DNA of 42,141 nt from an uncultured Bdellovibrionales bacterium (GTDB taxonomy: Bacteria; Patescibacteriota; Minisyncoccia; Moranbacterales; UBA1568). The notes under the pieces were generated by a model, which made no database searches, was not told the origin of the DNA, and saw only the letters and a program-made list of their open reading frames with translations. The translations under genes and the position numbers were made by a program. Numbering within the stretch: the stretch's first letter is position 1; every line of letters starts with the position of its first letter. This document shows, one piece after another, positions 4,572-32,895 of this stretch. The DNA is taken from contig CAZJZN010000002.1 in the NCBI GenBank assembly GCA_964550545.1, positions 1 to 42,141 of the forward strand, given 5' to 3'.

Positions 4572-4586
4572 AGTGTTTGAGAATGC

Positions 4587-10845: not shown

Positions 10846-10867
10846 AGGAAGTATTGTCTCATTCGGC

Positions 10868-10887: not shown

Positions 10888-10966
10888 CCAGACTCCACCA
10901 GCTAAACATTTCATCTCTACAAACGAAACTCGTAGAGTGCTCTTTCTCAAGCACGTGGGACCTGGG

Positions 10967-10984
10967 CACCCGCCTTCGCGGGTG
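10967..10984. repeat. REP-like GC hairpin (cacccgc-cttc-gcgggtg)
   Basis: 7-bp perfect stem with a 4-nt loop, 12 nt downstream (on the minus strand) of the stop at 10996. It has the same CCCGC-N4-GCGGG core as 10868 and 2853. Confidence 0.55.
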
Positions 10985-10995
10985 TGACGGATATT

Positions 10996-12435
10996 TTACA
11001 AATAGAAGCGCGGAAGGATGACATCTATGGTGAGATAGAGTGAAAAGAAAAAGAGAAGGAGAACGCTGCCTAAGAGGATATTTTTGAAGTATTCTCGTTT
11101 TCCGAAAAGCATACCGAGTCCGACCATGACGAGGATGAAGTGGGTTGCGAGATTGGGGAGAAAGTAACGTCCCGGCGTGCCGAGTTCGATCGAACCGATC
11201 GCGTGGAACACATTCCAGTCCGCGAGGCGGATGCCGAGTTGGAGCGCGATGATCATGGCAATGAGGAAGAAAATGAATTTCTTCTCGGGTAAGAAATCGG
11301 GTTTGTTTCTTGTAAAGAGAAAGAGGATGAGTCCGATCACGGAGACTGCCTGAATCGGCCAGAGGATAGTGGTGAGATTGTTGACGATGAGGTCGTCATT
11401 CCACCCGAGCGATCCCCAGTACGTGCGCGAGGAGAGTGCGAAGCGTCCCGGCGTGAGGCTCTTGTCGAGATAGTCGCCAAATGAAAGGATCGTTTCGGTG
11501 GCGGATCCTTTGAATGGGAGAAATTCCGAGAGCGAGTATTTCGTTTCAAGCAGGGAATTGGCAATGAAGAACACGCCGGCGAACAGTGTCGCGGAGAGGA
11601 GAATTTTCTTAGGATTTTTGGCTTTCTTGAAGAGATGGAATCCGACAAGTCCCAGGAAGACAACGAAAAGGATGACCGCTGTTCCTTTGGTAAAAACGCC
11701 GATTGCGATTGCGGTTATCATTATGGAAATATTCTTCCAATTGAGTCCGTCACGAAGACTCAAGACGGCACCCCAGGTAAAAAGGAAGAAGAGTGGGATG
11801 AGGAGCGCGTCGTAATTGATATTGGCGGTGTACATCGAAAATTTCGGTTGGAAGGCGACGAGCGCCGCGAAGAGCGTTGCGATGAATGAAGAAAACCCGA
11901 TCGCTCTCGCGATACAAAAGGCGAGGAGGACGGCGATTGTCCCCAGGAATACCGAGAAGATTCGAATCGAATAGAATCGGACGAGAATGTTTTCTCCGGC
12001 AAGCGCTTTTTCGATGGGAGCGGCAAGGGTGTGATAGAGGCTTCCGTTCACGACATCCGGATATTCAAAGAGAGTGTATGGTCGCCATTTTCGTTCGAGG
12101 ATGTCGCGCTCATTTTTCCCTTCGGAGCTCTCCGAAAAGTCCGTCGTATTGTAGAGACCGCTCCGGATATCGTTGATACCAGATGCCGTACCGGCATTCT
12201 GAATTTCTTCGGAGAAATTATAATCGGAGAATACGTCTCGGTTCGCTTTGGCTTTTCTGTCACTCTTTTCCCAATTTTTGTCCGTCGGCTCATTGATGTA
12301 CTGTACGGAATTGTAGTGTCGCGCCTCGTCTTGCCCGGTAAACATTGGAAAGAGCGTCGCCACAAAAACGCCCTTCAAGAAGAAGGTGACAAGGAGGAGG
12401 GAAAGGAGGAAGGCTGGCTTCTGGAAGATTCTCAT
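10996..12435 (-). CDS. Polytopic membrane protein, DUF2142/GT-C-like putative glycosyltransferase
   Basis: 479 aa. The first loop after TM1 carries PMFTGQDEARHYNS (a DE..H acidic motif as in PMT/DUF2142-type GT-C proteins). It is followed by a ~100-aa loop and more than 9 hydrophobic segments. Confidence 0.6.
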   Translation of the reverse strand: MRIFQKPAFLLSLLLVTFFLKGVFVATLFPMFTGQDEARHYNSVQYINEPTDKNWEKSDRKAKANRDVFSDYNFSEEIQNAGTASGINDIRSGLYNTTDFSESSEGKNERDILERKWRPYTLFEYPDVVNGSLYHTLAAPIEKALAGENILVRFYSIRIFSVFLGTIAVLLAFCIARAIGFSSFIATLFAALVAFQPKFSMYTANINYDALLIPLFFLFTWGAVLSLRDGLNWKNISIMITAIAIGVFTKGTAVILFVVFLGLVGFHLFKKAKNPKKILLSATLFAGVFFIANSLLETKYSLSEFLPFKGSATETILSFGDYLDKSLTPGRFALSSRTYWGSLGWNDDLIVNNLTTILWPIQAVSVIGLILFLFTRNKPDFLPEKKFIFFLIAMIIALQLGIRLADWNVFHAIGSIELGTPGRYFLPNLATHFILVMVGLGMLFGKREYFKNILLGSVLLLFFFSLYLTIDVILPRFYL

Positions 12436-12704
12436 AGGGTGAAGTATACTGGAATTGAGCGTTTTTTGGTAGACTCTATATGATCGTCTCCGGAGAGGGC
12501 GGTTTTGGTGCGATTCCTTTATTCATACTTTTCTCTGAATAAAGGAAACGAGAATTCCCGGTTTCCGAGAAATTTTTTCGTTATGTCGAACTCTTCCTCT
12601 TCTTCCCCGACCACGCGAAGTGGATCCTGAAATTGCTGGAATATGTGAAGGGATTGGAAGGGGGGTGAAGGAAGCATATTGTTCCCATTCTTGTTTGAAA
12701 TAGT

Positions 12705-13556
12705 ATGTTTATGAAAAAAAACCTTTACGAAAATATTTATAACAAAGCCGGTTATTTTAGTTTCGGGAAAAACTGGAGTGATTTTTTGGATTCCGCCTTT
12801 GACGAAAATCGACTTAATATTGCAAAGCAATCACTTATTGATTTTCTTGGTGGAGAAGAGAGAATTTCCGGAAAAACTTTCATTGATATCGGTTGCGGAA
12901 GCGGACTCTTTTCTTTGGCCGCGCTTCTTTTGGGGGCCAAAGAAGTAGTAAGTGTGGATATTGATGAAAATTCAGTTGCTTGTGCGCGTCGCTTACGGGA
13001 GAAGTTTCAGCAACTAAAAAATTGGAAAGTGCTTACCGGTTCAGCTTTGGACAAGGATTTTATTCTTTCTCTTGGTCAATTTGATATTGTTTACTCTTGG
13101 GGAGTGCTCCATCATACCGGAAATATGTATCAAGCTCTGGATAATGTAAGCAATCTTATGAAACCGGATGGAATTTTTTATCTCGCTCTTTACAATCGAT
13201 GTCGGAGTTGGTGGATTGGCACCTCCACGTTTTGGCTAAAGGTAAAAAAACTTTACAATCATTCGGGTGTTACCGGGAAAAGACTCATTTTTTATTGTTA
13301 TGTTGTTTATTTTTTTCTTGATTCTTTCATTGCTCTAAAAAATCCGTTCAAGCGCATGAAAGCCTTTAAGCGGCGCGGAATGAACTGGGAACACAATGTT
13401 ATTGATTGGCTCGGCGGGTATCCGTATGAGTTTGCTGGTCCCGATGAGATTGTGAATCATTTTTCTCCTCAAGAGATATTTTGCATAAAGATGACAAATT
13501 CTTATGGTCTTGCATGTGTTGAGTACCTGCTGCAAAAAATAAGCACAGTGAAATGA
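12705..13556 (+). CDS. Class I SAM-dependent methyltransferase
   Basis: Motif I FIDIGCGSGLFSLAALLLGAKEVVSVDID and post-I/II DIVYSWGVLHH are present. Confidence 0.85.
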   Translation: MFMKKNLYENIYNKAGYFSFGKNWSDFLDSAFDENRLNIAKQSLIDFLGGEERISGKTFIDIGCGSGLFSLAALLLGAKEVVSVDIDENSVACARRLREKFQQLKNWKVLTGSALDKDFILSLGQFDIVYSWGVLHHTGNMYQALDNVSNLMKPDGIFYLALYNRCRSWWIGTSTFWLKVKKLYNHSGVTGKRLIFYCYVVYFFLDSFIALKNPFKRMKAFKRRGMNWEHNVIDWLGGYPYEFAGPDEIVNHFSPQEIFCIKMTNSYGLACVEYLLQKISTVK

Positions 13557-14926
13557 AAATCATAATTTCTCTTTCTGATGGAATGGTTGAGAGGAATCTG
13601 TTGAAAACGGATTTTTGGTCGTATTTGACTCAGGAAAAAGAACTGGAAATAATATTGATTTCTTCGAGTAATGAATATTTCAATTATCTTGCAAAGCGCT
13701 ACGCTTCACCAATGGTGAAAGTTGTTTATGAACAATATTCTATTGGTTTAATTGATGCGTTTCTTTCATACCTTACAAGAAATAGTATTCATAGTTGTAC
13801 AATAAAGGAAGAGCAATATAGTCAGAGAAAGGGAATTAATGGGCAGAAAAAAAGATCATTTCTTACATACTGTTCTTTTCGTCTCTGTTGGTATTTGGGG
13901 AAGTACTATTGGTGGAGAAAATTTTTGAGATTTTTGTATCGACATCTGAGTTCTTGTGGATATGCGGAAAGCGTATTGAGAAGGGAAAAGCCGGATTTGG
14001 TTTTTGTTCCATCCATCAATCCATCTGATTACAAGATGATTTGGCAGGCAAGACGGCAGAATGTGCGCTGCGTCCAAATGATAAAGAGTTGGGACAATTT
14101 GAGTAGTAAAACCTTTATGGCTGTCCTTCCAGATTACCTTGTTGTTCATAATAAAATAATAAGAGACGAAGCGGTATATTATGGCGATATGCCAAAAGAT
14201 AAAATTTTTATTTCCGGCATACCACAGTTTGATTATCTGGTTTCCAAGCGGGACGAAATCCTCATAAATCGAGAGGAATTTTACGCTGATCTCGGCATTG
14301 ATTCTTCTCAGAAGGTCATACTTTTCTCAGCTTCCGGAGATAGGATTAGTCCTCATGATGGCGATTATCTTCTTATGCTTGATGAGGCTATAGTGTGCGG
14401 AAGTCTTCCCCATGATACGCACATACATGTTCGGTTGCATCCAAAATATGATAGCAACTTAAAAGGTGTTGAAAAATTGAAACACGTCACAGTTGAGAGA
14501 CCTTTTTCTTATTTAACTAAAGATCACAGGGATTGGGTATTTGAGGAAAAGGATATGAAGCGTTGGTATAATTCCCTTTTTCACAGTGCTATGGTGGTAA
14601 ATGTTGCCTCTACGATGGCTATCGATGCGGCAGTGGTCGAAAGGCCAATAATATCTTTGGGCTTTGATGGATATGGTAAACTTCCCCTGTCTCAATCCGT
14701 CTCTAGATACTATGACCGAGATCATTACAGAAATGTAATAAAGACTGATGCAGTCTTACTGGTTAGGAGCGAACAGGAGTTTATAAATGCTGTTCGCTGT
14801 TATCTCAAAAATCCTCTCCATAAGGAAAATAAACGGAGGAAGCTGGTTGAACAGCAGTGTTACAAAATTGATGGAAATGCTTCAAGCCGATTAGCTGATT
14901 TTCTTCTTAACTTAGTAAAGGGTTAG
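13553..14926 (+). CDS. Uncharacterised protein, paralog A (putative GT-B-like surface-carbohydrate biosynthesis enzyme)
   Basis: 457 aa with an ATGA overlap with the upstream gene. It is colinear and homologous to 16320..17672 (shared SWDN, PDYLVVHN, RDEAV, GIPQFD, IDAAV, YYDRDHYR, QQCYKIDGNASSRLADFLL). I recognise no named family with confidence. Confidence 0.7.
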   Translation: MKIIISLSDGMVERNLLKTDFWSYLTQEKELEIILISSSNEYFNYLAKRYASPMVKVVYEQYSIGLIDAFLSYLTRNSIHSCTIKEEQYSQRKGINGQKKRSFLTYCSFRLCWYLGKYYWWRKFLRFLYRHLSSCGYAESVLRREKPDLVFVPSINPSDYKMIWQARRQNVRCVQMIKSWDNLSSKTFMAVLPDYLVVHNKIIRDEAVYYGDMPKDKIFISGIPQFDYLVSKRDEILINREEFYADLGIDSSQKVILFSASGDRISPHDGDYLLMLDEAIVCGSLPHDTHIHVRLHPKYDSNLKGVEKLKHVTVERPFSYLTKDHRDWVFEEKDMKRWYNSLFHSAMVVNVASTMAIDAAVVERPIISLGFDGYGKLPLSQSVSRYYDRDHYRNVIKTDAVLLVRSEQEFINAVRCYLKNPLHKENKRRKLVEQQCYKIDGNASSRLADFLLNLVKG

Positions 14927-14929
14927 AAG

Positions 14930-16315
14930 ATGATTCATGAATTTTACAAAAGGTTGGCGATGGGGGAGGTAGTAAATAGCCTCTTTATTGTTGCAACAAA
15001 GCCATTGACGCTTATAAATTCACTCGTTGTCATAGGGCTTTTGAGTCTTCATGACTTTGGTGTGTACAGGCTTGTTATGTCTTTTCAGGCGTTAATTTCG
15101 GGATTCTCAATAAATTTTCTTGATAATCTCGTATTAAACGAAATGAATGTGCATCATGGTGAAAAACGGGCATTTAAGGCGAAGCGCATATTTGCAGAAT
15201 ACGTTGTATTAAAGGTGATCATCGGGGCAATTCTTACTGTCGGAGTGTTTTTTTTGGCTGATTTCATCGGGAGGTACTATGACTCAATGGAAGGTATAGG
15301 ATCGTGGATACGTATTATTTCATTTCTCTTCTTGATAGAAAATATTCATTCACTCGCCGTCACTTTTCTGCAGTATCGTCTTAATTTTTTTCTTTCGTCA
15401 TTTTATCTTTTTGCTTACGAAGGAGTGAAACTTATATTTATTCTCGCACTCTATTTTTTCGGAAATTTTGGAATTTCCGAAGTTCTCATACTTACAGTTT
15501 TTTCTCACCTGATAGTTTTTCCATTTGTCCTTATCCCGAGTTTTCGCGGATATTTTGAGAAAAGCGCGGGTGATTCCAAATCAGTTTCATCGGGATTCGG
15601 CTCACCCTTTGTTGCTCTGATACGGCAATGCGGATTTTGGACGGTAGCAAGATACTATCTTTTGAATTTTTCCCAAAATATTCGACCGTGGGTAGTGAAA
15701 TGGTTACTTGGGACGGAAGCAGTTGCGATATTCAGTGTGGCTTTGAGCTTTCTTGGGAGCTTAAAGAGTTTCATTTCTTTTAATTCGCTAAAAGTATACC
15801 TTCCAAGAGAATCTGGAAAAAGAGATCGGATGCGCGAGATTGTGTCGCGTGGAGGGAGGTATCTTACCTATGTTTTTTTCGCTCTATTTGTTTTTGGGAT
15901 TATTGCCGTTCCAATTGTGACAACGATATTTTTTCCGAAATACTGGTCATCCATGCCTCTTTTCTTTATTATGGCGGCATCAATGGTTTTTTTCGGCGTG
16001 TATACAATTTCCGGACAAATACTTTACTCTCTTCGGAGACAGAAGGATCTTTTTTTCGTGGCCATTGCAAGCGCTGTTTCAATGAGTATTTTTTCAATTA
16101 TTTTGATACCAGTCTTTGGTTTATACGGGGTTGCGCTTGAGTTTTTCTTGACTCAATTTGTTGCGCTTGCCGCTTCGCAATTTTTCCTCTTTCGGTATAA
16201 TTCAGAACTCAAATTTCAATGGAAAACCATGTTCATGTTTGATGAATATGATCGGGATCTCCTTCAAAAAGGAATAAAGTTTTTTAGGATGAAGGTTTTG
16301 AGGATGTCCTCGTAG
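14930..16315 (+). CDS. Wzx-like polysaccharide/oligosaccharide flippase (MOP superfamily)
   Basis: 461 aa with ~12 hydrophobic segments along the whole length. It has a typical Wzx size and sits within a glycan gene cluster. The assignment rests on architecture and context. Confidence 0.7.
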   Translation: MIHEFYKRLAMGEVVNSLFIVATKPLTLINSLVVIGLLSLHDFGVYRLVMSFQALISGFSINFLDNLVLNEMNVHHGEKRAFKAKRIFAEYVVLKVIIGAILTVGVFFLADFIGRYYDSMEGIGSWIRIISFLFLIENIHSLAVTFLQYRLNFFLSSFYLFAYEGVKLIFILALYFFGNFGISEVLILTVFSHLIVFPFVLIPSFRGYFEKSAGDSKSVSSGFGSPFVALIRQCGFWTVARYYLLNFSQNIRPWVVKWLLGTEAVAIFSVALSFLGSLKSFISFNSLKVYLPRESGKRDRMREIVSRGGRYLTYVFFALFVFGIIAVPIVTTIFFPKYWSSMPLFFIMAASMVFFGVYTISGQILYSLRRQKDLFFVAIASAVSMSIFSIILIPVFGLYGVALEFFLTQFVALAASQFFLFRYNSELKFQWKTMFMFDEYDRDLLQKGIKFFRMKVLRMSS

Positions 16316-16319
16316 CTCT

Positions 16320-17672
16320 ATGAAGACGATACTTATACCAATATTTCAAGGAGCCGAATCAAGAAGTATTTTGCGTACCGAAATTTTTCAGAAACTAAGA
16401 GCTGTTTCTGGTATCCGGATAGTTCTCCTTGTTCCAAATGAAGAGAAAAAGAAGTATTTCGGTTCCGAATTTTTTGGAGATAATGTTGTTTATGAGGTTG
16501 TCAAAAACTTTCAAGGGAATTTTTTTGACAAGGCCTTTACCTTTTTGAGGAAGAATCTTGTAAGAACGAATACGCTTCGTTTGAAAAGAAAGCAGGATTT
16601 TCTTTTGGGAGGAAATGCGGTGAAATATTTTTTTGAATGTATCTTTAGTTTCATTTTTGGAAGAAAGATGTGTAGGAAGGCGGTTCGATGGATTGATCAG
16701 AATCTTATTCCTGAAAAAGGGGCACAAAAGATATTTGATACTTTGATTCCAGATATTGTTTTGACTGCTCATATTTTTGGTGATATGGAAGCATCAATCT
16801 TAAAAGAAGCAAAAAAGCGAAGGATTAAGACTATCGGACTTATCAATTCGTGGGATAAAATTACTTCTCGCGGTATGGTGAGAGTTATCCCGGACAAACT
16901 TATCGTTCACAATGATACAATCAAAGACGAGGCAGTTCGTTTTATTGATATGTCACCGGATTCGGTATTTGTGCTTGGAATTCCGCAGGATGATGCTTTT
17001 TTTTCTTTTTATCCCAAAGATAAAGAGAAATTTTTTGGCTCTCTTGGAATTTCCACAGAAAAGAGAATACTTCTTATCTGTCCGATGGGAAAAACATACA
17101 GCGACGTCGACGCCGATATTATAAATGTAGTGACGAATTTTAAGGCGCAAGGACGTATTCCCGATGATCTCGCTATTTTGGTAAGATTTCCTCCAAATGA
17201 TAATATCGATGTATCCTTATTGAGAAATAAGGATTTGCTTGTATGGGAACAACCGGGTGTTCGTTTTGAGTCAACTCGCGGAATTGATTGGGACATGACT
17301 GAAATTGATGTTCAAAGGTTGGCATATACACTGCACTGTAGCGCTATGGTTATTTGTCCGCCGTCATCAATTTCTGTGGACGCGGCTATTTTTGATACCC
17401 CAATAATCAATATTCGCTTTGAAAGGTACGATCGTGAAAAGTTAAACATTAACGCTTACTATGAAATGGATCACTATCGTGCCATTGCTAAGACCGGCGG
17501 CATACGATTTGTTCAAGATGAAAACGAGCTATTGTTATGGATAAACAGATATGCGAACGATAGGAAACTTGATAGAATTGGCAGGAAAGAAATAGTTCGT
17601 CAACAGTGTCAATTTTTGGATGGGAAGTCCAGTTTTCGTATAGCGAATTTTGTGCTAGACTCGCTGGGTTAG
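16320..17672 (+). CDS. Uncharacterised protein, paralog B (putative GT-B-like surface-carbohydrate biosynthesis enzyme)
   Basis: 450 aa, full-length homolog of 13553..14926 (SWDK, PDKLIVHN, KDEAV, GIPQDD, VDAAI, YYEMDHYR, RQQCQFLDGKSSFRIANFVL). Confidence 0.7.
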   Translation: MKTILIPIFQGAESRSILRTEIFQKLRAVSGIRIVLLVPNEEKKKYFGSEFFGDNVVYEVVKNFQGNFFDKAFTFLRKNLVRTNTLRLKRKQDFLLGGNAVKYFFECIFSFIFGRKMCRKAVRWIDQNLIPEKGAQKIFDTLIPDIVLTAHIFGDMEASILKEAKKRRIKTIGLINSWDKITSRGMVRVIPDKLIVHNDTIKDEAVRFIDMSPDSVFVLGIPQDDAFFSFYPKDKEKFFGSLGISTEKRILLICPMGKTYSDVDADIINVVTNFKAQGRIPDDLAILVRFPPNDNIDVSLLRNKDLLVWEQPGVRFESTRGIDWDMTEIDVQRLAYTLHCSAMVICPPSSISVDAAIFDTPIINIRFERYDREKLNINAYYEMDHYRAIAKTGGIRFVQDENELLLWINRYANDRKLDRIGRKEIVRQQCQFLDGKSSFRIANFVLDSLG

Positions 17673-17706
17673 AGCCATTTTTAGTCTTCGGAAGTTGATA
17701 GAATTC

Positions 17707-17734
17707 TTGCTGTTTGTGCATGGTTAACTATACT
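17707..17734 (+). promoter_or_regulatory. Candidate sigma70-type promoter (TTGCTG-16 nt-TATACT) upstream of the 17766 gene
   Basis: Hexamers read at 17707-17712 and 17729-17734 with a 16-nt spacer, in the only sizeable gap (93 nt) of the plus-strand block. This is pattern-match only. Confidence 0.2.
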
Positions 17735-17765
17735 ATGAGTTGTATCGCTTTAAGAGCAAACCGCT

Positions 17766-18608
17766 ATGAAAATTGGCATGACAATCAAGAGAGTCATTCT
17801 TTTAGACAAAGAGGGTGAAGAATTGGCGAGCTTTGAAAAAGGCGCTGAAAAAAAGCTCGCTTCTTCCGATATTTATCCTGCTGTGATAGAAAATTATTTT
17901 TGGGATACAGAAAAACAGACAGAAAGTGCGGAAAAATATAAAGATCAAATCAAACGCGTTTACTATCAGGATGAAGTGGATGAAAAGGTAAGGAATATGC
18001 TTCAGGATGATCTTCGGAGAATTGAATTGGTCAAAAGCTTCAATTATGGTGTTACTGTTTTAGAAGTTGGATGCAGTGACGGGACGGTGAGTATAAAAAT
18101 TGCTGAATTACCTCAAGTAAAAAAAGTGCTCGGAGTGGACATTAGAAAATCAGCTATCAAAGACGGAAAGGCACTTATCAAGGATCTTCTTAAGAGAGGT
18201 GAAATTGGAGAGGAAACCGCAAAAAAGGTACTGTTGCTACATTCGGCAACTGAAACATTGCCAGCAAAATACGGTCAATTTGATTCGGTGTGTGCTTATG
18301 AAATTTTTGAGCACCTAGCGCCTCAAGATATGTTGCCCGTCTTTCAAAACCTGTATAAATTTGTAAAAAAAGACGGAAACTTCTTTATTAGCGTCCCGAA
18401 TCGTTTTCCTCATAAGAAGTATGACGCGCTTGGTAGAAGCCGTTGGCGCTGGTTTGATCACAGAAACTTCTTCAGTAAGTTGAGCTTGGAGATATTTCTC
18501 AAAAATTTTTTTGAGAAAGTGAAATTTTATCCCCTGTACAAGGGAGAAGATGTGAGTGATAGCATTTATCTTATTTGTGAATGTAAAGGAAAAAAATATG
18601 AGATCTAA
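17766..18608 (+). CDS. Class I SAM-dependent methyltransferase
   Basis: Motif I VLEVGCSDGTVSIKIA and acidic loop VLGVDI are present. FDSVCAYEIFEHL is followed by DGNFFISVPN. Confidence 0.8.
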   Translation: MKIGMTIKRVILLDKEGEELASFEKGAEKKLASSDIYPAVIENYFWDTEKQTESAEKYKDQIKRVYYQDEVDEKVRNMLQDDLRRIELVKSFNYGVTVLEVGCSDGTVSIKIAELPQVKKVLGVDIRKSAIKDGKALIKDLLKRGEIGEETAKKVLLLHSATETLPAKYGQFDSVCAYEIFEHLAPQDMLPVFQNLYKFVKKDGNFFISVPNRFPHKKYDALGRSRWRWFDHRNFFSKLSLEIFLKNFFEKVKFYPLYKGEDVSDSIYLICECKGKKYEI

Positions 18609-19431
18609 AATTGTTGCAGAGGTAGCATCCTCTCATAACGGAAATATCGAGCTTGCCAAGGAAATGATTCGCGTTGCCGCTCGAACCGGAGTGGATATTG
18701 TTAAGTTTCAGTCATGGCAAAGCAAGAATGTTGATAAAGATGATCCCGATAAGAAGCGCTACCAATCTCTTGAACTTACTGATGAGGCTCACTTTATTTT
18801 AAAGGAAGAATGTGAACGGTTAGGAGTGGAATTTATGACGACCTGTTATGATGCTGGACGCATTCCGTTTCTCAAGGAATTGGGTCTGAAGAAAGTTAAA
18901 GTGGCAAGTACGGATTTGAAGCATTATAACTTTCTTCAAAAACTTCGTGATAATTTTGAATTCGTTGTTGCTTCTACCGGGATGTCAGAAAAGGATGAAA
19001 TTCTCAAGGCATTGGATATTTTGAGGCAAGGAGAGTACAGTATTATGCATTGCGTATCCATTTATCCCTGTCCTTTGGAAAAGGCGAATCTCCGAAAACT
19101 TCTGTGGTTGAAGTCGCTTTCTGACTCCGTTGGTTATTCCGATCATACCGAGGGTATCGAGGCGGCTGTTTTTGCGCTGGGAATGGGGGTGAATTATGTT
19201 GAAAAACATTTTACTTTGGATAAAAACATGGAACAAGTTCCTCATACTGTCGGAAAGGGGATGAAGCCGATCACAACTCATATGATTGCCAGCGAGCCGT
19301 TGGTGTTTAAGGAAATTTGCGAATGGCGAGATAAGCTCGTTACAGCCTTAGGGAGCGGAAGCCTGGAAATACTCCCAGAAGAAAAATTGACCAGGGAGAA
19401 ATATACTGGCAGACTCGGAAAGAACAATTGA
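18598..19431 (+). CDS. neuB: NeuB-family nonulosonic acid synthase homolog (TIM-barrel only; no C-terminal SAF domain)
   Basis: IVAEVASSHNGNIELAKEMIRVAARTGVDIVKFQ, VASTDL, STGMS, HCVSIYPCP, GYSDHTEG and EKHFTLDK match the NeuB/PseI/LegI core. The ATG at 18598 overlaps the upstream stop. The protein ends at 277 aa, where the SAF domain would normally begin. Confidence 0.82.
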   Translation: MRSKIVAEVASSHNGNIELAKEMIRVAARTGVDIVKFQSWQSKNVDKDDPDKKRYQSLELTDEAHFILKEECERLGVEFMTTCYDAGRIPFLKELGLKKVKVASTDLKHYNFLQKLRDNFEFVVASTGMSEKDEILKALDILRQGEYSIMHCVSIYPCPLEKANLRKLLWLKSLSDSVGYSDHTEGIEAAVFALGMGVNYVEKHFTLDKNMEQVPHTVGKGMKPITTHMIASEPLVFKEICEWRDKLVTALGSGSLEILPEEKLTREKYTGRLGKNN

Positions 19432-19432
19432 T

Positions 19433-20617
19433 ATGTCAGAGAAAAAAAAGCGAAAAATTTGTTTTGTTATTACCAGCTTTATACACTACAGTCGGAATTT
19501 TTTGATATTGGAAGAACTTAATAAGAGAAATGATGTTGATTTACATATCGTCTTGGGTGGGGTGGTATTGTCCAGTAAGTATGCTTCACATACTTTTAAT
19601 GTGAGAAGCATACTTGAGAGTGAGCGTTTCGAGAATATTCATGAAATTTATTTCAATCTTGAGGGAGATCATCATATCGTGAAAGCAAAGACAGTCGGTT
19701 TCGGTATTGTGGAGTTTTCCTCGCTTCTTTACGCTATTCATCCAGATTTGTTGGTTGTAAGAGGCGATCGTTTTGAAGTGCTCGCAGCTGTGATTGCTGC
19801 CGCATATATGAATATTCCCATTGCTCACATTGAAGGTGGAGATGTGAGCGGAACACTCGATGAATCGGTTCGGCACGCGATAACAAAACTCTCGCACATA
19901 CATTTCGCCACTAATGAACCGGCAAGAGAAAGACTTCTCAAAATGGGGGAAAAGAAAGAGTTAGTATTTAATTTCGGCAGTCCGGATATTGAGGTGGTAG
20001 CACGAGCTGAAACGTGGAAATTAAATATGGCGAGTATTGATTTTGAAAATTTTGGGAGCGGAGCTCAATTCGATCCGAAAGAGGAGTATTTGATGGTTAT
20101 GTATCATCCGGTGAACACGGAGTACGAGCTTCTTTCGGGACACACAAAAAGTTTGCTCGATGCGGTGTATAAACTGAATAAGCAAGTGCTTTGGTTTTGG
20201 CCGAATTTTGATGCTGGGTCAGAGTATATTTCGCATGAATTGAGAATCTTTAAAGAAAGGACATCCCAGCATAAGATTAAGTTTTTGCGATATCTTCCCC
20301 CTAAACAGTTTTTGTCTCTTCTTGCGAATACCCGGTGTTTGATTGGGAATTCTTCCGCCGGAATAAAAGAATGCTCTTACCTTGGAATTCCGGTAGTGAA
20401 TATCGGGACCCGGCAAAATAAACGTTTGCGAGCAGAAAATGTGATGGATTGCAATAATGATACTAAAGAAATTTTCAATATAATCGGGGAGCAGTTACGT
20501 GTAGGGAGATATCCGGTCTCTCATTTGTATGCCTCGAATGATACGAGTAGGGAAATTGCAACTGTTTTGGCGGAAGTGGATCTTTATACACAAAAAGCTT
20601 TCACGGATTATCCGTGA
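19433..20617 (+). CDS. neuC: UDP-N-acetylglucosamine 2-epimerase (hydrolysing), NeuC-like
   Basis: GDRFEVLAAVIAAAYMNIPIAHIEGGDVSGTLDESVRHAITKLSHIHF is the hallmark 2-epimerase core. It starts 1 nt after the neuB stop. Confidence 0.85.
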   Translation: MSEKKKRKICFVITSFIHYSRNFLILEELNKRNDVDLHIVLGGVVLSSKYASHTFNVRSILESERFENIHEIYFNLEGDHHIVKAKTVGFGIVEFSSLLYAIHPDLLVVRGDRFEVLAAVIAAAYMNIPIAHIEGGDVSGTLDESVRHAITKLSHIHFATNEPARERLLKMGEKKELVFNFGSPDIEVVARAETWKLNMASIDFENFGSGAQFDPKEEYLMVMYHPVNTEYELLSGHTKSLLDAVYKLNKQVLWFWPNFDAGSEYISHELRIFKERTSQHKIKFLRYLPPKQFLSLLANTRCLIGNSSAGIKECSYLGIPVVNIGTRQNKRLRAENVMDCNNDTKEIFNIIGEQLRVGRYPVSHLYASNDTSREIATVLAEVDLYTQKAFTDYP

Positions 20618-20678
20618 TAGTGGCATCGGTGAAACTTTTTCTGCGATTTTTGCGGAAGTTCGGGATTTTTTGGATTTT

Positions 20679-21395
20679 ATGGACAAAAAAATATTGGCGG
20701 TTATTACCGCTCGGGGAGGATCAAAGGGTGTGCCTGGGAAAAATATCAAACTTCTTGGCGGAAGACCATTGCTTGCTTATTCAATTGAAATAGCTCGTAA
20801 GAGTCGTTTAATCACCGATCTTATTCTTTCGACTGATGATGAAGCAATTGCGTCGATTGGCCGCGAGTGGGGTATCGATGTTCCATTTCTTCGTCCAGCG
20901 GAACTTGCTACCGACACAGCTGGACATGTTGATGTAATGCAACATGCCGTTCGTTTTATGGAGGAAAGAAACGGAATGCAATACTATGGCGTCGTTATCC
21001 TTCAGCCAACATCTCCTTTTCGGCTGGTGGAGGATATTGATGAGGCGCTCAAAAAATTCGTTAATTCCGGTGCGGATAGCGCAGTAAGCGTAGTGGAATT
21101 GGAGGGAGATCACCCGATAAAAATAAAAAAAATGGAAGGAGATCGGGTACTTCCATATTGTTTTCCGGAACCGGAAGGCGTGCGAAGACAAGACTTGTCC
21201 GTAGCTTACAAAAGAAGTGGCGCGGTGTATGTAGTGAGGAGAAGTGTGCTAATGGAACAAGGAAAAATTTTTGGGGAGTACGTGGTGGGACACATTATTC
21301 CGAAAGAGAGATCGATTGATATTGATACCGAATTTGATTGGTTGAAGGCGGAATATATGTTTAAGAAACTTCAAGAAAAAGAACTTTTTGTTTAG
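20679..21395 (+). CDS. neuA: CMP-N-acylneuraminate (nonulosonate) cytidylyltransferase, NeuA-like
   Basis: The ATG at 20679 gives MDKKILAVITARGGSKGVPGKNIKLLGGRPLLAYSIE, the canonical CMP-NulO/CMP-Kdo synthetase N-terminus. LQPTSPFR is also present. The ORF-track extension from 20529 overlaps neuC and is rejected. Confidence 0.87.
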   Translation: MDKKILAVITARGGSKGVPGKNIKLLGGRPLLAYSIEIARKSRLITDLILSTDDEAIASIGREWGIDVPFLRPAELATDTAGHVDVMQHAVRFMEERNGMQYYGVVILQPTSPFRLVEDIDEALKKFVNSGADSAVSVVELEGDHPIKIKKMEGDRVLPYCFPEPEGVRRQDLSVAYKRSGAVYVVRRSVLMEQGKIFGEYVVGHIIPKERSIDIDTEFDWLKAEYMFKKLQEKELFV

Positions 21396-21396
21396 A

Positions 21397-21405
21397 GGGG
21401 GGGGG
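21397..21405. repeat. G9 homopolymer immediately after the neuA stop
   Basis: Read directly: tag a ggggggggg a, at the convergence point of the plus and minus gene blocks. Confidence 0.9.
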
Positions 21406-21462
21406 AGTATTATCGTGCAAATTTTTTCGGAAGAATGCCTTGGGGGAGCACTTTGAAGCATT

Positions 21463-22569
21463 TCATTTGGACGAAGAGAAAAGTTTCTCGTATTTTATAA
21501 TACCCGTATTTTTGTCGAAATATTTCTTTGCCGTTGTGTGGGCATTTCGTGAAAGAACATGCCAATTTGTTTCATTCTGGCTTTGTAAAATTTCCGACAT
21601 ATGGGTGATGTCTTTTGCAATTGCGCCGCATTGATTTGTCTCGATGATTGCGTCGAAATTGAGAAAGGAGAGAACTGGAGTGCCATGCTTGAGAGATTCC
21701 AGAATCGTATTTGGAAATCCTTCGTTCTCTGATGTGACGATGAGAAACGATGATTGGAGATAGAGCGACTTCAAATCGTGCGCAGAGGCTCCGGGAATGA
21801 ATGTGATGTTTGATATTTTTTGCACCCTTTCTCTTGTCTTTTCAAAAATTATACTGTTTGTTTTTGGCATCACCATGGTAAAATGCCATTCCGGAAACAG
21901 GAGCGCTAGGTCGATAAGTAAGTGCGGTCGCTTGAAAGGTTCGGAACGCCCAACCCAAATGGCGTTTTTTTGGAAGTGTCTTGCTTGGCGGGGTGGAATT
22001 TCTTGAAAATTTCTGATAGTGATAACATCCCCTCGATAGTGGGGAAATGTATTGAAAAAGAGAGAGCGATCTTCTTCGTTCTGCAGGATGAATGTGTCAA
22101 TAAGGTTGATTAAGCGAAAGAAAATTTTTCCATACAGCGTTCGATTGAGCGAACCGTCAATATTCCGTATATGCGAACTTTTAACAATGATTCTTGAGCG
22201 TGTAATTTTTCCCAAAAGAAGAATCTCTACCGTTTGCCAACTGACACCTTTTGTAAATAAAACCGCAGGGGAAATGTGGAGAAGAATTGTTGCCAATCTG
22301 AAAAAGTTTTGTGCAGAGGTTATAATATTGCCACTATTTTTCTTCTGACCTCTGTGGAGAGTAATTTCGCGCACGATTTCTGTTTTTTTCTGTTGACCGA
22401 AGTCTCCCACAATAAAGTGAACGTCGAACAATTTTTTGTCTAAAGATGTTGCGATGGAGTAAGTGTCAATCTCCGCACCTCCATACGCTGGATTTTCATC
22501 GGGAAAAAACAAGGGATATGCTCCCAAAAGAATAAATGTGATGCGTTGTTTTTTTTTGGCATTATTCAT
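21463..22569 (-). CDS. Glycosyltransferase family 4-like
   Basis: C-terminal ENEGFPNTILESLKHGTPVLS (E-x7-E) and N-terminal AYGGAEIDTY are present. 368 aa. Confidence 0.8.
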   Translation of the reverse strand: MNNAKKKQRITFILLGAYPLFFPDENPAYGGAEIDTYSIATSLDKKLFDVHFIVGDFGQQKKTEIVREITLHRGQKKNSGNIITSAQNFFRLATILLHISPAVLFTKGVSWQTVEILLLGKITRSRIIVKSSHIRNIDGSLNRTLYGKIFFRLINLIDTFILQNEEDRSLFFNTFPHYRGDVITIRNFQEIPPRQARHFQKNAIWVGRSEPFKRPHLLIDLALLFPEWHFTMVMPKTNSIIFEKTRERVQKISNITFIPGASAHDLKSLYLQSSFLIVTSENEGFPNTILESLKHGTPVLSFLNFDAIIETNQCGAIAKDITHMSEILQSQNETNWHVLSRNAHTTAKKYFDKNTGIIKYEKLFSSSK

Positions 22570-23230
22570 ATTCGGCTACTGCCCAAATCTCTCCAAATTG
22601 AATGGAGTATTTTTTTATGTGTAATCCCGCAAGATCGAGTTCTTTTTTGAAGGAAGCGAATGTATATTCGGTATAGTGTGTATTATCAAGTCGCCACACT
22701 GCGCCGATACTCTCTTTGTACAGGGTAAGCCAATCCCTGTCTATCATGGGAACCCTGATGAGAAATTTTTTTGAGAGCGGTCTTATTCTGTGGAGAAATT
22801 CAACTCGGTTCTCGATATGTTCCAGAACGTTGCTCAGTATGATGGCATTAAAGGTTGTTTTAAATGTGTATTTGGTCGCATCTCCACATATGAATTGAAC
22901 ATTCTTGTGGGAACAATCTTTTCGAGCCTTCTGTATGCTTCTGTTTAATATATCGATCCCAATAATTTCTCGAGCCTTTTTTGAAAGGTCTCGGGTTACA
23001 ATTCCGTTTCCGCAACCAACATCAAGCACGGTATCATTCGCCGTTATGTTTTCCAAGAAGAAATCGTGATATTTCATGATTTCATGTTTTGGACTTATCC
23101 CATGGTTGATTCGAGTGGCAAGCTGACCGATGAGGAAATACATAAAACTGTGAATGTTGCAGAGAGTTTTAATGATGAGTTTCATCATAAGATTTGAAGA
23201 TTTTAATATATTCATCAACTGATGCATCAA
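22562..23230 (-). CDS. Class I SAM-dependent methyltransferase
   Basis: Motif I VLDVGCGNGIVTRDL, then IGIDI and FNAIILSNVLEHI. The first codon at 23230 is TTG. ATG candidates at 23227, 23188 and 23185 are equally possible, so the start is ambiguous. Confidence 0.78.
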   Translation of the reverse strand: MMHQLMNILKSSNLMMKLIIKTLCNIHSFMYFLIGQLATRINHGISPKHEIMKYHDFFLENITANDTVLDVGCGNGIVTRDLSKKAREIIGIDILNRSIQKARKDCSHKNVQFICGDATKYTFKTTFNAIILSNVLEHIENRVEFLHRIRPLSKKFLIRVPMIDRDWLTLYKESIGAVWRLDNTHYTEYTFASFKKELDLAGLHIKKYSIQFGEIWAVAEYE

Positions 23231-24188
23231 GATGGAATCTTTTTTCGGCTACAAGTCGAGAGGATTCTTTATATTGCTTCAAATTTGGGATGATATTTTC
23301 TATGGAGCGTGAAAAATCATTAAAAGATTCACTTGTAAATGGATAAGAGTCCCTAAAGGGATTATGCTGTTTTGCCTTTACGACATATCCGTTATAACCT
23401 GAAGTAATCAATTCGTTAATGCTTCCGCGTTCGAAAGCGATAACGGGAAGCCCTGCCGCCATGGCTTCGATGACACTGTTGGGACAGGCGGATTGGTCGG
23501 AGAAGAGGAAAATATCGTACTCGATGATTTTTTGGAGGAGATTCTCGTTTGAAAGTTTCCCATGGAAATGAATGTTTGGAATATTTTCAGGATTTGAGAA
23601 TATGGATTTCAGATTATTCGTATAGGTTCCGTAAATATCGAAAGAATAATCTCTTGGCTCGAGGAGCTTTACGGACTCGATAAGTGGCTTGATTTGATCT
23701 TTGCGGCGGAATTGACCAAAAGTGAGAAGTTTTATAGGAGCGCTTTCTTGTTGCCCTTTTTCGTTTGGTCTGATCTTTTCCGTATCAACGCCGTTGTAAA
23801 TGACAGTCCAGTTCTTTTTTTTCTTACGACAAATTGTTTCCCATGCTGATTTGCTGTAGTGGCTTTGATATACGACGAAATCTGCGAAATAATTGTGGAT
23901 GATTTTTATCTTGAGGTTATACAGCCAGTACAGTTTTCCAACGGAGGATGATGAAGTATAGATGCCGTCGAGGCGTTGAATGATTCTTTTTTTCAAAATC
24001 TTTGCTATGAAGAGCGATTGAAAATATTGCGAAAGTGGACAATCACCGACAATGAAAAGTATGTCAAAATCGAAGGAAAAATCCCGTGAGACGGACAATC
24101 CTTTTTTTTCAACGGCAGTGGAAAATTTTTTCACAAAAGTCGCTGTGCCGCCGATATCTTTTATTTTGAAAGGGATGAAAATTTTCAT
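23169..24188 (-). CDS. Glycosyltransferase family 4-like
   Basis: GT-B architecture with the C-terminal motif DQSACPNSVIEAMAAGLPVIAFERGS. ATGA overlap with the upstream GT2. Confidence 0.8.
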   Translation of the reverse strand: MKIFIPFKIKDIGGTATFVKKFSTAVEKKGLSVSRDFSFDFDILFIVGDCPLSQYFQSLFIAKILKKRIIQRLDGIYTSSSSVGKLYWLYNLKIKIIHNYFADFVVYQSHYSKSAWETICRKKKKNWTVIYNGVDTEKIRPNEKGQQESAPIKLLTFGQFRRKDQIKPLIESVKLLEPRDYSFDIYGTYTNNLKSIFSNPENIPNIHFHGKLSNENLLQKIIEYDIFLFSDQSACPNSVIEAMAAGLPVIAFERGSINELITSGYNGYVVKAKQHNPFRDSYPFTSESFNDFSRSIENIIPNLKQYKESSRLVAEKRFHLDASVDEYIKIFKSYDETHH

Positions 24189-24970
24189 AGAAACTTTCGT
24201 TTCAAATCTTTGATAAAACCGGGCGTGAGAATGACCGCGAGCGGTTCGAGGAGGAATCGGTATTCAAGCGGTGAACGGTGCAATTTTTTGATATAGCGAA
24301 TCTGTGTTTTTATGCACTGGTGCATTTGTTCGTTTTGGTGGTCGAACGAGAGACCGCTGTTCGCGTTTCTGTGGCACAGAAATTCTTGCAGATTATGATA
24401 GCGAGTTTTGGGTGATACGCGAAGCCAGAGTTCATAGTCTTGTCCGTAGTGCAACCGTTCATCATAATTTCCTGCATCTCGGATGAGGGGCGTCCGAAAC
24501 ATGACAGAGCTGTGCGCGAATGGATTTCTTCGTATAAGGGATCGTTTGATACTCTCATCGGACTCGGGGCATCGTACCGGATATCCGATGTCGTTTTTTT
24601 CGTTTCGATAATTACATCCCACAATGCCATGATCGGGATGTGCTTCTAAGAAGGCGATTTGCTTCTCAAGCTTTGAAGGTTCCCACCAATCATCACCGTC
24701 AATACGCGCGGTGTATGGTTCGGTAATGTTCGAGAGACCTTTGTTGAGCGATTTCGTAAGTCCGAGATTGTGCGTATTTTTTACAAGAAAAAACTTCTCT
24801 GAACCGAATGTCAATTGCCATTTCTTGAGTTTTGCAAATGTCCTGTCGGTTGAGTGATCATCAATCGCGATGATTCTGAAATCTTGAAATGTCTGCGCAA
24901 GGATACTCTCGAAGGCTTTGTCGAGGGTCGTTTCGGAATTATGGAGGGAGATGAGAATCGCGCATTTCAT
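24185..24970 (-). CDS. Glycosyltransferase family 2
   Basis: ILISLHNSETTLDKAFESILAQTFQDFRIIAIDDHSTDRT and the DxD region ARIDGDDWWEP form the canonical GT-A N-terminal domain. Confidence 0.88.
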   Translation of the reverse strand: MKCAILISLHNSETTLDKAFESILAQTFQDFRIIAIDDHSTDRTFAKLKKWQLTFGSEKFFLVKNTHNLGLTKSLNKGLSNITEPYTARIDGDDWWEPSKLEKQIAFLEAHPDHGIVGCNYRNEKNDIGYPVRCPESDESIKRSLIRRNPFAHSSVMFRTPLIRDAGNYDERLHYGQDYELWLRVSPKTRYHNLQEFLCHRNANSGLSFDHQNEQMHQCIKTQIRYIKKLHRSPLEYRFLLEPLAVILTPGFIKDLKRKFL

Positions 24971-26100
24971 AGCGAATGGAGAAAGTGGGAAAGTCTATCA
25001 ATCGAAAGCCGGATGGAATAGTGTTCTTGAATGAAGTTTCGTGCCGCATTTCCATAGAATCTTCGTTTCTCGGGATTCGAAATGAGGATTTGGACCGACG
25101 TTGTGATTTCTTTGGTATTTTTCGTAGGTACAAGCATGCCTGTTTTTCCGTTTTCCACGAGCTCGCGATTTTCCGAAATATCGGTTGTGATGACGGGGAG
25201 CCCTGCGGCCATGGCCTCCATGACAGCATTGCTCATGCCTTCAAAGAGCGTCGGGAGAACAAAGCAATCAGAAATTTTGAGAAGCTGTGGGACATCCGTG
25301 CGGCGACCGAGGAAGTGTATGTTTTCTTTGGACTGGTAGCTTTCAATCTGTTGTTCAAGGTTTTTTCGTTCGGTGCCGTCGCCGACCAAGAGGAGTTTCA
25401 AATTCAATGTATTAATGGCTGGTATAGTTTCATTGTTGGGAGAATAGAGGGATTCAAAGGCTTCGAGGAGGTAGCGATGGCCCTTGTTGGAGTGGAGGTT
25501 CCCAACACAGATGATGACGAAATCGTCGGGATTAAGACCGAAAGTTTCGCGGAGCTTTGAATTTGGCTGAATGCTATTGAAAAACTCCACATCAACACCG
25601 GTTGATATTGTGGTGATTTTTTCTTTTGGTACCTCGATTTTGTTTACATAGAAATTTTCTACTGCTGGGGAGTTGGCAAGGTACTGTCGAGCGTATTTTT
25701 TGGTGATTTTCTCAAATATTCTGGCAGGCCAATATTTTGAATGATTGTAGGTTGTTCCGAGAAACGGGATGATTGGCGCGGACACCTTCTTTTGAAGGAG
25801 GAGTCGCCCGATCGCATCCGCATGGAAGAGATAGGTGATGATAACATTGGGAGCAAACTGACGAACTTCCATAAATAGCCTTTCGTATCCTGCGATATCA
25901 AAAAAACCCTTCCAGTGCACAGTGGTCACGGAAATATTCTTTTCTGAGAACTTAGGGGCAAGTTCCCCAAGTTCGCGAAGGGTTATAATATGATTCTCGA
26001 ACTCGTCCGCGAGGAGCGGAAGAAGTCGGAGAAGCGCGTTTTCCCACCCGCCGTTTCCGAGCGATTGGATGATATGGAGGACTTTTTTTTTATTTCGCAT
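24967..26100 (-). CDS. Glycosyltransferase family 4
   Basis: The ATG at 26100 gives MRNKKKVLHIIQSLGNGGWENALLRLL, a typical GT4 start. The E-x7-E motif is LFEGMSNAVMEAMAAGLPVITTD. The 47-aa extension in the ORF track overlaps the upstream gene and is rejected. Confidence 0.85.
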   Translation of the reverse strand: MRNKKKVLHIIQSLGNGGWENALLRLLPLLADEFENHIITLRELGELAPKFSEKNISVTTVHWKGFFDIAGYERLFMEVRQFAPNVIITYLFHADAIGRLLLQKKVSAPIIPFLGTTYNHSKYWPARIFEKITKKYARQYLANSPAVENFYVNKIEVPKEKITTISTGVDVEFFNSIQPNSKLRETFGLNPDDFVIICVGNLHSNKGHRYLLEAFESLYSPNNETIPAINTLNLKLLLVGDGTERKNLEQQIESYQSKENIHFLGRRTDVPQLLKISDCFVLPTLFEGMSNAVMEAMAAGLPVITTDISENRELVENGKTGMLVPTKNTKEITTSVQILISNPEKRRFYGNAARNFIQEHYSIRLSIDRLSHFLHSL

Positions 26101-27187: not shown

Positions 27188-27221
27188 AGGAGATATCTAA
27201 CTACTTTGGCTTAGTATAGCG

Positions 27222-32780: not shown

Positions 32781-32895
32781 AGGAGTGCGGTTAACAGTCA
32801 ATAGAGAATAAAAACGTTCATTGGTTGAGTAGTTGAGTTGGTTCGGTACTTTTTGAACAGTGTGAACTGAAAAGTATCGCATTCCATTCAACAGT

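Follow-up and report, generated by a model that had tools for sequence, protein, structure and literature searches.

A low-GC, strain-variable cassette with a predicted CMP-nonulosonic acid module in a bacterium of the candidate phyla radiation

In Enterobacteria and streptococci, the O-antigen (rfb) and capsule (cps/K) loci consist of low-GC serotype cassettes held between conserved frame genes; these cassettes bring their own nucleotide-sugar genes, glycosyltransferases (GTs) and Wzx flippase, and they are replaced as a whole by recombination in the flanks, with raised divergence in the adjacent frame genes. The same layout, the same kinds of genes and the same divergence pattern are found in the 42,141-nt stretch of contig CAZJZN010000002.1 analyzed here (the window), whose host is a bacterium belonging to the candidate phyla radiation (CPR; Patescibacteria), Candidatus Moraniibacteriota. 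Its AT-rich block at 12.45-24.2 kb is very probably one allele of a surface-glycan cassette which varies between strains, is swapped by recombination and encodes a CMP-nonulosonic acid (NulO) module, transferases and a flippase. The locus is a textbook cassette phenomenon in an unusual host and not a new kind of system; the parts of it which could represent a new variant are a clade-specific operon of a methyltransferase (MT2) with NeuB, and its TagF-like partners. It differs from O-antigen loci in its CPR host, for which there is no evidence of lipopolysaccharide, and from O-antigen and capsule loci in general in that Wzy, Wzz and an initiating transferase were not recognised in the window, that the frame includes a GT-C-type membrane glycosyltransferase (PMT_2) together with a polyprenyl-phosphate sugar synthase, and that at least two more variable sites are present, one at 29.1-32.45 kb and one in the spacer between AsnB and the methyltransferase MT4.

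Three further systems bear comparison. The pseudaminic/legionaminic acid (Pse/Leg) locus of Tannerella forsythia (Tanf_01245, TFUB4_00887, BFO_1060; PMC5420450) shares with the window a strain-specific NulO and a CMP-NulO pathway linked to TagB/TagF-like transferases of the GT-B type, and the methyl modifications of the Tannerella glycan and its export to surface glycoproteins (PMC5420450) are counted here as an additional likeness. The window differs from it by having two TagF-like paralogs, whose scores on the BFO_1060 model are only 31-40 bits, and by a pathway that contains NeuC and is devoid of Pse/Leg precursor genes. The SAF-less "environmental" NulO synthases (group I, PMC8208679; 6ncs) are TIM barrels only, of about 277-290 aa, with the catalytic motifs kept, and NeuB of the window is of this kind; it belongs to a CPR/DPANN/Omnitrophota subclade (at least 50% identity) in which a methyltransferase abuts the gene in 24 of 25 loci, and PMC8208679 mentions neither methyltransferase linkage nor candidate phyla. 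Finally, the DPANN ectosymbiont Ca. Nanohalococcus occultus SVXNc expresses NulO genes located in a predicted horizontal gene transfer island, for which surface disguise or host mimicry was proposed (PMC10266531). The likeness is that of an ultra-small episymbiont with NulO genes in a horizontally acquired island; the difference is that SVXNc is an archaeal, halophilic case, for which neither population-level cassette replacement nor exchange boundaries were shown (PMC10266531).

A preliminary description of the window, made from the letters alone, had proposed an AT-rich island in a locus of about 50% GC, and computed GC, GC at third codon positions (GC3) and dinucleotide profiles do delimit a discrete island. 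The block 12437-24188 has 39.3% GC and the remaining window 50.0%, with a trough of 0.36-0.43 over about 12.5-24.5 kb and values of 0.45-0.56 elsewhere in 1-kb sliding windows. Measured as dinucleotide relative-abundance distance (delta*, x1000), island and flanks are 131 apart, the left and right flank 27 and the two halves of the island 36; every 3-kb window within the island is nearer to the island signature and the windows outside are nearer to that of the flanks, the genome being represented in these GC and oligonucleotide comparisons by the window flanks only. GC3 is 0.34-0.42 in the 11 island genes and 0.48-0.65 in genes outside; it jumps to 0.63 in PMT_2, directly left of the island, and on the right it climbs in steps through GT2 (0.50), GT4d (0.52) and MT4 (0.65). 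The left edge had been placed at the 270-nt divergent intergenic region at 12436-12704, and there the compositional edge is indeed sharp. Pfam and NCBIfam profile searches of the window proteins found in the island all of the gene families that had been listed for it, namely three methyltransferases, two PF04464-like proteins, a flippase, NeuB, NeuC, a cytidylyltransferase and two GT4 enzymes (Table 1). The first part of the island is a rightward operon (12711-21395) with the gene order MT1, TagF-like 1, flippase, TagF-like 2, MT2, NeuB, NeuC, NeuA, and the second part, GT4b, MT3 and GT4c (21463-24188), forms the end of a long operon that runs leftward.

The comparison of synteny with relatives suggested in the preliminary description revealed different gene content between conserved flanks, both in a contig of 142,095 bp from a different sample and in further cassette types. 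The 142-kb contig, here called conspecific (a label based on the identity of about 20 kb of flanking DNA and not on whole-genome average nucleotide identity), is 97.8% identical to the window over 3189-10844 and 98.7% over 32455-42141, with 98.4% for AsnB and 94.3% for PMT_2. It has no DNA homology to the window from 12414 to about 26500 and carries another gene set at that site, which comprises beside PMT_2 two genes for short-chain dehydrogenases/reductases (SDRs) or dehydratases (one CapD-like), a carbamoyltransferase, a TylF methyltransferase, a flippase of its own, and others. Divergence from the conspecific contig grows toward the cassette, with identities of 88-94% in PMT_2 and 86-90% in MT4 against 98-100% farther out, a rise that is typical of recombination-driven antigen loci. 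Since its MT4 falls outside the 90% cluster and no GT4d ortholog of at least 50% identity turned up on this contig, which has a 5.5-kb gap (record 19154-24709), the right breakpoint in the conspecific is bounded only to 24.2-26.58 kb. Apart from the window and conspecific types, at least three more cassette types adjoin PMT_2 orthologs, in the loci which we numbered L016 (91% nucleotide identity of PMT_2), L070 (77% at the amino acid level) and L073 (70%), and L079 carries a further type. The pair GT2-GT4d is retained beside the cassette in L070 and L017, and as L070 keeps this pair on the far side, the frame of PMT_2, cassette and GT2-GT4d is conserved across species. Several surface-glycan cassettes are thus seen to be kept as alternatives at this site in a Moraniibacteriota population.

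Horizontal transfer, which had been suggested on grounds of composition, can be seen directly in a second lineage that shares the cassette and is represented by a 49,696-bp contig (loci L068/L069). In this lineage the island (12.5-24.2 kb) is 96-99.7% identical to the window, with a mean of 98.4% over 12.5-16.0 kb, and the flanks are 62-96% identical overall, with a left-flank mean of 92.2% and 91.6% for PMT_2. On the right side identity declines from 93% to 88.5% in the GT2 region and is 62-75% in GT4d (68% in amino acids, in a lineage whose island matches at 98%), 82-84% in MT4 and 73-88% in GT4e and the gene of a 698-aa protein (unk698). The left step in identity lies between 12.2 and 12.5 kb, and on the right the value is 98.2% at 23765-24164 and then 93.2, 88.5 and 74.8% in successive windows. 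These steps match the compositional edges, so that 12.45-24.2 kb constitutes a discrete unit which was exchanged after the lineages had diverged. Third codon positions differ by 3.2% in the island (122/3763) and by 21.1% in the frame genes (1038/4917), a gap of about six-fold (Fisher p = 6e-150) which purifying selection or composition cannot produce. The right edge had been described as gradual; this is true of the composition, which is graded over 24.2-26 kb, but the exchange boundary is sharp at about 24.2 kb, and the graded side is such a boundary followed by the older, separately diverging genes GT2, GT4d and MT4.

No tRNA was found at or in the island, no Rfam element and no integrase, transposase or other mobility Pfam domain was found in the window, and repeats flanking the island were limited to short matches at chance level. 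A site-specific insertion, as for genomic islands of the tRNA/integrase type, was dropped on these grounds, and on the same grounds we infer homologous recombination in the frame genes. Sitting in a frame of PMT_2 on one side and GT2-GT4d-MT4-AsnB on the other, cassettes would be exchanged among strains and related lineages along this route. The sialic-acid-like cassette moved recently between lineages which are about 8% or more apart in their flanking DNA, and the whole pattern is the signature, in population-genetic terms, of a surface antigen under diversifying selection, be it by phage, host recognition or predation.

As regards the product of the cassette, NeuC passes the hydrolysing-epimerase equivalog TIGR03568 with 337.5 bits (cutoff 235.9; 59 bits on the non-hydrolysing WecB model), NeuA has NeuA structures among its PDB matches (6ifd, 9ftb, 1eyr), and NeuB, with 6ncs (290 aa) as its best PDB match, has TIM-barrel motifs which align to the NeuBs of the PDB. 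The catalytic and metal motifs of NeuB (E8, H13-N14-G15, K36-F-Q38, K101/S104, S181-D-H183, E202-K-H204; residue roles mapped from N. meningitidis via the literature, PMC8208679) are invariant across 21 homologs, and its best 120 database homologs measure 218-307 aa, most of them 271-299 aa, and have PF03102 as sole domain. The match to the full-length NeuB model TIGR03569 covers model positions 3-233 of 329, so that NeuB lacks the SAF/antifreeze-like domain, and its open reading frame (ORF) ends 1 nt before the start of NeuC. The nearest PDB relatives of MT2 are ribose 2'-O-methyltransferase domains of the Hen1 type (42 bits), a relationship that is compatible with O-methylation of a sugar. 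Judging from these family assignments, NeuC would convert a UDP-HexNAc into a 2-acetamido-mannose-type hexose, the short NeuB would condense this product with phosphoenolpyruvate (PEP), NeuA would activate the resulting NulO with CTP, and MT2 would probably methylate the sugar or an intermediate.

The sugar is predicted to be of the neuraminic/legionaminic (Neu/Leg) class and not Pse. NeuB scores 132 bits on the PseI model (cutoff 340), and a Pse route was rejected with a NeuC-type 2-epimerase present in the window and PseB, PseC, PseH and PseG absent from it. In agreement with the earlier remark that the window has no Pse/Leg-type dehydratase or aminotransferase, profile searches of the 42 kb found neither a DegT aminotransferase, nor a PseB/LegB/PglF-type dehydratase, nor an N-acetyltransferase for Leg or Pse; the only SDR (9210-10160, in the conserved flank) is GalE/RmlB-like, with 136 bits against 475 on the LegB model and 39 against 408 on that of PseB. 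Leg precursor genes were likewise missing from two Pfam-annotated CPR loci, and in 25 CPR/DPANN loci none recurred within 9 kb of the module. With no such genes in the window or near the module, a Neu5Ac-type product, made from UDP-GlcNAc, PEP and CTP, is the most parsimonious, and our most parsimonious guess would be a Neu5Ac-like sugar which is possibly methylated.

The preliminary description had held that neuC, neuB and neuA together suffice for CMP-Neu5Ac. All three families are present, but the finer assignments do not bear this out to the same degree, and they weigh against a Neu5Ac-like product: NeuB stays far below the cutoff of the full-length equivalog TIGR03569 (194.3 bits, cutoff 399.65), the PDB scores of NeuC are nearly equal for human GNE (194 bits) and LegG (5xvs/5zlr, 180 bits), the best NCBIfam model for NeuA is PseF (TIGR03584) with 175.6 bits, under its cutoff of 205.7, and the window covers 42 kb of a genome in which Leg precursor genes could lie elsewhere. 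Neither the TIGRFAM nor the PDB scores separate Neu from Leg. The near-equal scores of NeuC, the PseF-like NeuA, the limited extent of the visible DNA and the naming of several close NeuB homologs as "N,N'-diacetyllegionaminate synthase" by JGI would all suit a legionaminic-acid-type sugar, for which NeuC would act as LegG on UDP/GDP-N,N'-diacetylbacillosamine supplied by genes outside the visible DNA, with LegI and LegF as the roles of NeuB and NeuA. We consider this possible but unlikely, given that the 4,6-dehydratase, the DegT aminotransferase and the N-acetyltransferase it calls for are not in the window, that no precursor gene recurs around the module in the other loci, and that the Neu route would need in a reduced genome only the three common substrates named above.

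TagF-like 1 and 2 may be CMP-NulO transferases, a proposal which we see as evenly balanced. The two proteins (450-457 aa) are soluble and 27% identical over their full length, and the AlphaFold2 model of TagF-like 1 (pLDDT 93.7) has a GT-B fold. Genes of this type accompany the NulO core in 15 of 25 close loci and seven of 24 distant ones, homologs at 35-38% identity sit upstream of the core in many CPR loci, and the family is linked to the core also in Planctomycetota, Omnitrophota, Acidobacteriota and Gammaproteobacteria. Genes for CDP-alditol supply of the TagD, TarI or TarJ type were found neither in the cassette nor elsewhere in the window, the NeuA-like protein being the only cytidylyltransferase, and in Tannerella the knockout of Pse/Leg transferases with a TagB domain removes the terminal sugar (PMC5420450). 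It is this combination of co-occurrence, missing CDP-alditol pathway and Tannerella precedent on which the proposal is based. Several results weigh against it: PF04464 is matched with 38.6 and 31.2 bits (threshold 22.1) in the C-terminal half of the model only, the profile of the family matches TarL (E = 2.8e-5) as well as a capsule polymerase of the TagF-like type, the two proteins score only 40.4 and 31.1 bits on the BFO_1060 model (NF046086; cutoff 200), so that the likeness to that family is one of functional analogy, and an attempt to assign the donor of TagF-like 1 by its fold was abandoned after Foldseek returned generic GT-B proteins only (among them UDP-GlcNAc 2-epimerases, TM-score 0.57-0.70). 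The match to TIGR04396 is very weak.

The above-threshold PF04464 scores and the matches to TarL and the capsule polymerase can also be taken to mean that the TagF-like proteins are CDP-glycerol or CDP-ribitol phosphotransferases for a teichoic-acid-like polymer, with the NulO added by a GT4 enzyme or an unrecognised transferase. CPR bacteria are monoderm-like and teichoic-type polymers are plausible there. We nevertheless find this reading rather improbable in view of the missing TagD, TarI and TarJ-type genes, the tie between the family and the NulO core across distant phyla, and the TagB-like NulO transferases of Tannerella. In the favoured reading the TagF-like paralogs would move the NulO from its CMP donor, the Wzx-type flippase would export the lipid-linked unit, the two further methyltransferases and the two GT4 enzymes would assemble the remainder of the repeat and decorate it, and the acceptor would be a cell-surface glycopolymer or glycoprotein. 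The four-gene NulO module and the two candidate transferases are clonable targets for learning what these cells display.

Another explanation of the AT-rich block is that it is native and owes its composition to function, through membrane or low-expression genes or relaxed selection. The alternative cassettes of this species and the NulO cassettes of L017, L018, L021 and L025 have less GC than their flanks as well, which suggests a tendency of the locus, and the island shares the strong positive GC skew of the flanks. We regard a native origin as very improbable all the same: GC3 falls by about 0.25 in soluble enzymes and membrane proteins alike, the delta* of 131 stands against 27 between the flanks, the island is missing from a strain that is 98% identical outside it, and in another lineage its third-position divergence is about six-fold below that of the flanks. 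Low GC may still in part be a property of such loci and not of the base composition of a donor, and this, as well as the flank-based label of the conspecific contig, weighs against the exchanged-cassette reading, as do the search for a donor by GC, in which no lineage fits (the colinear cassette of L017 has 42-46% GC and the low-GC Parcubacteria have the core only), and the search for Wzy, chain-length or initiating phosphoglycosyltransferase genes, in which no match to PF04932, PF02706, PF02397 or PF00953 was found in the window. That the window is an assembly or binning chimera of low-GC DNA and a 50%-GC contig is hardly credible even for a metagenome-assembled genome, and even though short-read assemblies often break at the left junction (the short contigs L002-L006 end at 12.5-12.9 kb), since nine loci (eight distinct contigs, eight sample accessions) span the PMT_2-MT1 junction at 98.4-100% identity, both island junctions lie on the single 49.7-kb contig, and the gene neighbourhood is repeated in other species (L017, L066).

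The distribution of the module MT2-NeuB-NeuC-NeuA was addressed by scanning species-representative genomes with a NeuB alignment, which gave 49 loci. NeuBs at least 68% identical to that of the window come almost all from CPR bacteria (Parcubacteria, Paceibacterota, Moraniibacteriota UBA12116, Komeilibacteria and Taylorbacteria; some of the third-party annotation labels are doubtful), the best match among GTDB representatives being 78%; those at 50-55% come from Nanoarchaeota and some Omnitrophota, and those at 36-47% from Verrucomicrobiota, Planctomycetota and others. MT2 lies no more than 100 nt from NeuB in all but one of the 25 loci whose NeuB is at least 50% identical and in none of the 24 more distant loci; with the linkage confined in this way, the four genes are a clade-specific operon. 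The MT2-NeuB pair is present also in the nanoarchaeotal loci L040 and L041. The entire cassette is colinear in L017, at 44-78% amino acid identity, and in L066 the order is PMT_2 ... flippase-MT2-NeuB-NeuC-NeuA-TagF-like-MT1-like-GT4 ... AsnB; the MT1-like gene adjoins a TagF-like gene in both of these CPR loci. A sialic-acid-type decoration in such an organism had at first been called noteworthy, an opinion that needs revision, as the NulO module occurs commonly in genomes of CPR, DPANN and Omnitrophota and is hence less exceptional.

CPR bacteria are thought to be attached to hosts and their surface chemistry is almost unknown. Sialic-acid genes are mentioned in passing for Peregrinibacteria (PMC4736985); we found no paper which couples the word "nonulosonic" with Patescibacteria, and the SAF-less NeuB with its operon methyltransferase, a recurrent module of CPR, DPANN and Omnitrophota, is not described as such in the searchable literature. 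A more far-reaching view is that of a distinct NulO system, near-exclusive to ultra-small, host-dependent lineages (CPR, Nanoarchaeota/DPANN, Omnitrophota), with a new family of CMP-NulO transferases, a mobile cassette and a methylated, sialic-acid-like sugar whose chemistry has yet to be described, and serving as a variable surface tag for host attachment or phage evasion; we think this doubtful. Some CPR genomes (loci L023, L026, L028, L029 and L035) carry within 10 kb of MT2-NeuB a second NeuB/NeuA pair, 26-36% identical to the window proteins, which suggests two putative NulO pathways in one locus. A D-2-hydroxyacid dehydrogenase gene is found directly upstream of MT2 in six loci, and a ligase-like protein with Wzy_C and TPR domains nearby in six.

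Coordinates of the island and its surroundings are collected in Table 1. The left frame contains two pilin-like genes with N_methyl motifs, a proline-tRNA ligase, a GT4, a GT1-like gene, the GalE/RmlB-like SDR and PMT_2, as well as four ORFs without family match, two of which encode membrane proteins. The pilin-like genes (155-1289) and the CPR affiliation of the host accord with the initial impression of a reduced, pilus-dependent organism; for the exact NeuB, NeuC and NeuA sequences NCBI gives the name Candidatus Moraniibacteriota bacterium. The right side has, in order, GT2, GT4d, MT4, AsnB, GT4e, the polytopic 698-aa protein, a DUF2304 protein and a PpgS/AglJ-like synthase (GT2b), followed by a GH94 protein and a 1502-aa protein with a glucoamylase domain. 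The DUF2304 protein and GT2b are likely conserved partners of the GT-C enzyme PMT_2. Both unk615 and unk698 are polytopic; they were considered as Wzy or ligase and set aside, having no Pfam or NCBIfam match and being unrelated to the Wzy_C protein of other CPR loci.

Table 1. Features of the island and of its neighbouring frame genes (positions in the window; TM, transmembrane; SAM, S-adenosylmethionine).
Feature	Position	Strand	Basis and remarks
PMT_2-family GT-C membrane glycosyltransferase	10996..12435	-	PF13231/PF02366; 10 TM-like segments; conserved left frame gene
Left junction, divergent intergenic region	12436..12704		homology to the conspecific contig (cassette B) ends at 12413
MT1, class I SAM methyltransferase, 281-aa gene call	12711..13556	+	Pfam; GC3 0.35
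TagF/TagB-like GT-B transferase 1	13553..14926	+	PF04464 38.6 bits; no TM segments
Wzx-type flippase (Polysacc_synt)	14930..16315	+	PF01943 29.5 bits, cutoff 28.2; about 12 TM-like segments
TagF/TagB-like GT-B transferase 2	16320..17672	+	PF04464 31.2 bits; paralog of TagF-like 1
MT2 methyltransferase, overlaps NeuB start	17766..18608	+	Pfam; first gene of CPR-type NulO core
NeuB-family NulO synthase, SAF-less, 277 aa	18598..19431	+	PF03102 178 bits
NeuC-type hydrolysing UDP-HexNAc 2-epimerase	19433..20617	+	TIGR03568 337.5 bits
CMP-NulO synthetase (NeuA/PseF-like cytidylyltransferase), 238-aa call	20679..21395	+	PF02348 (CTP_transf_3)
GT4b glycosyltransferase	21463..22569	-	Pfam; GC3 0.42; 97.1% nucleotide identity to cassette-sharing lineage
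MT3 methyltransferase	22562..23230	-	Pfam; called at 207 aa in L068
GT4c glycosyltransferase, last island gene	23169..24188	-	Pfam; right exchange boundary about 24.2 kb
GT2 + GT4d, right frame genes	24185..26100	-	Pfam; intermediate GC; order conserved across species, sequences diverging independently
MT4 methyltransferase, frame gene	26090..27187	-	conspecific homology resumes here at reduced identity (86-98%)
AsnB-MT4 intergenic spacer, insertion hotspot in relatives	27188..27221		different inserted genes in two relatives
AsnB-type glutamine amidotransferase, frame gene	27222..29111	-	beside NulO module also in L017, L066
GT4e + unk698 (polytopic 698-aa protein), second variable segment	29115..32454	-	about 12 or more TM segments
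DUF2304 small membrane protein + GT2b polyprenyl-phosphate sugar synthase (PpgS/AglJ-like)	32421..33627	-	98.7% identical to conspecific

Some smaller observations concern the frame and its additional variable sites. In place of the segment 29115-32454 the conspecific contig has a GT4 of 383 aa, a methyltransferase of 287 aa and a 558-aa protein; in the window this segment coincides with a second, shallower GC dip (43-44%, at 30-32.5 kb). The spacer between AsnB and MT4 holds inserted genes in two relatives, in the conspecific (L013, 20232-22528) a 254-aa gene, a SMODS gene (CBASS-like nucleotidyltransferase) and an S24 peptidase gene, and in the 49.7-kb lineage (L068, 5292-8619) a DKNYY gene, a 167-aa gene and a CHAP-domain gene, both inserts being low in GC. 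On the left side, at 10689-10988, the 3' end of the gene beside PMT_2 (265/277 aa) and the adjoining spacer are only about 40% alignable to the conspecific, with 88-97% in the neighbouring regions; this is a small hypervariable patch inside the conserved left frame. At 12519-12677, on the minus strand of the left junction, a 52-aa ORF is called in several assemblies and is present only as a 31-aa ORF in the 49.7-kb lineage, so that it is probably no gene.

The GC skew of the plus strand, (G-C)/(G+C), is positive throughout the window (+0.03 to +0.30) whatever the orientation of the genes, the island included; the genes of the minus strand are consequently C-rich on their coding strand (skew -0.04 to -0.30), an unusually strong strand asymmetry. 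The proline-tRNA ligase (1548-2789) has only 413 aa against the 568 positions of the bacterial model, to which it aligns in two stretches, and so it appears to be without the inserted editing domain. At the right end of the window (33653-41634) a 1130-aa GH94 protein, with two supersandwich stretches and the catalytic domain, stands beside the 1502-aa membrane protein with its PF10091 glucoamylase-like domain; the pair, 98.7% conserved between the strains, looks like machinery of the beta-1,2-glucan or cellodextrin type, to judge by its domain content.

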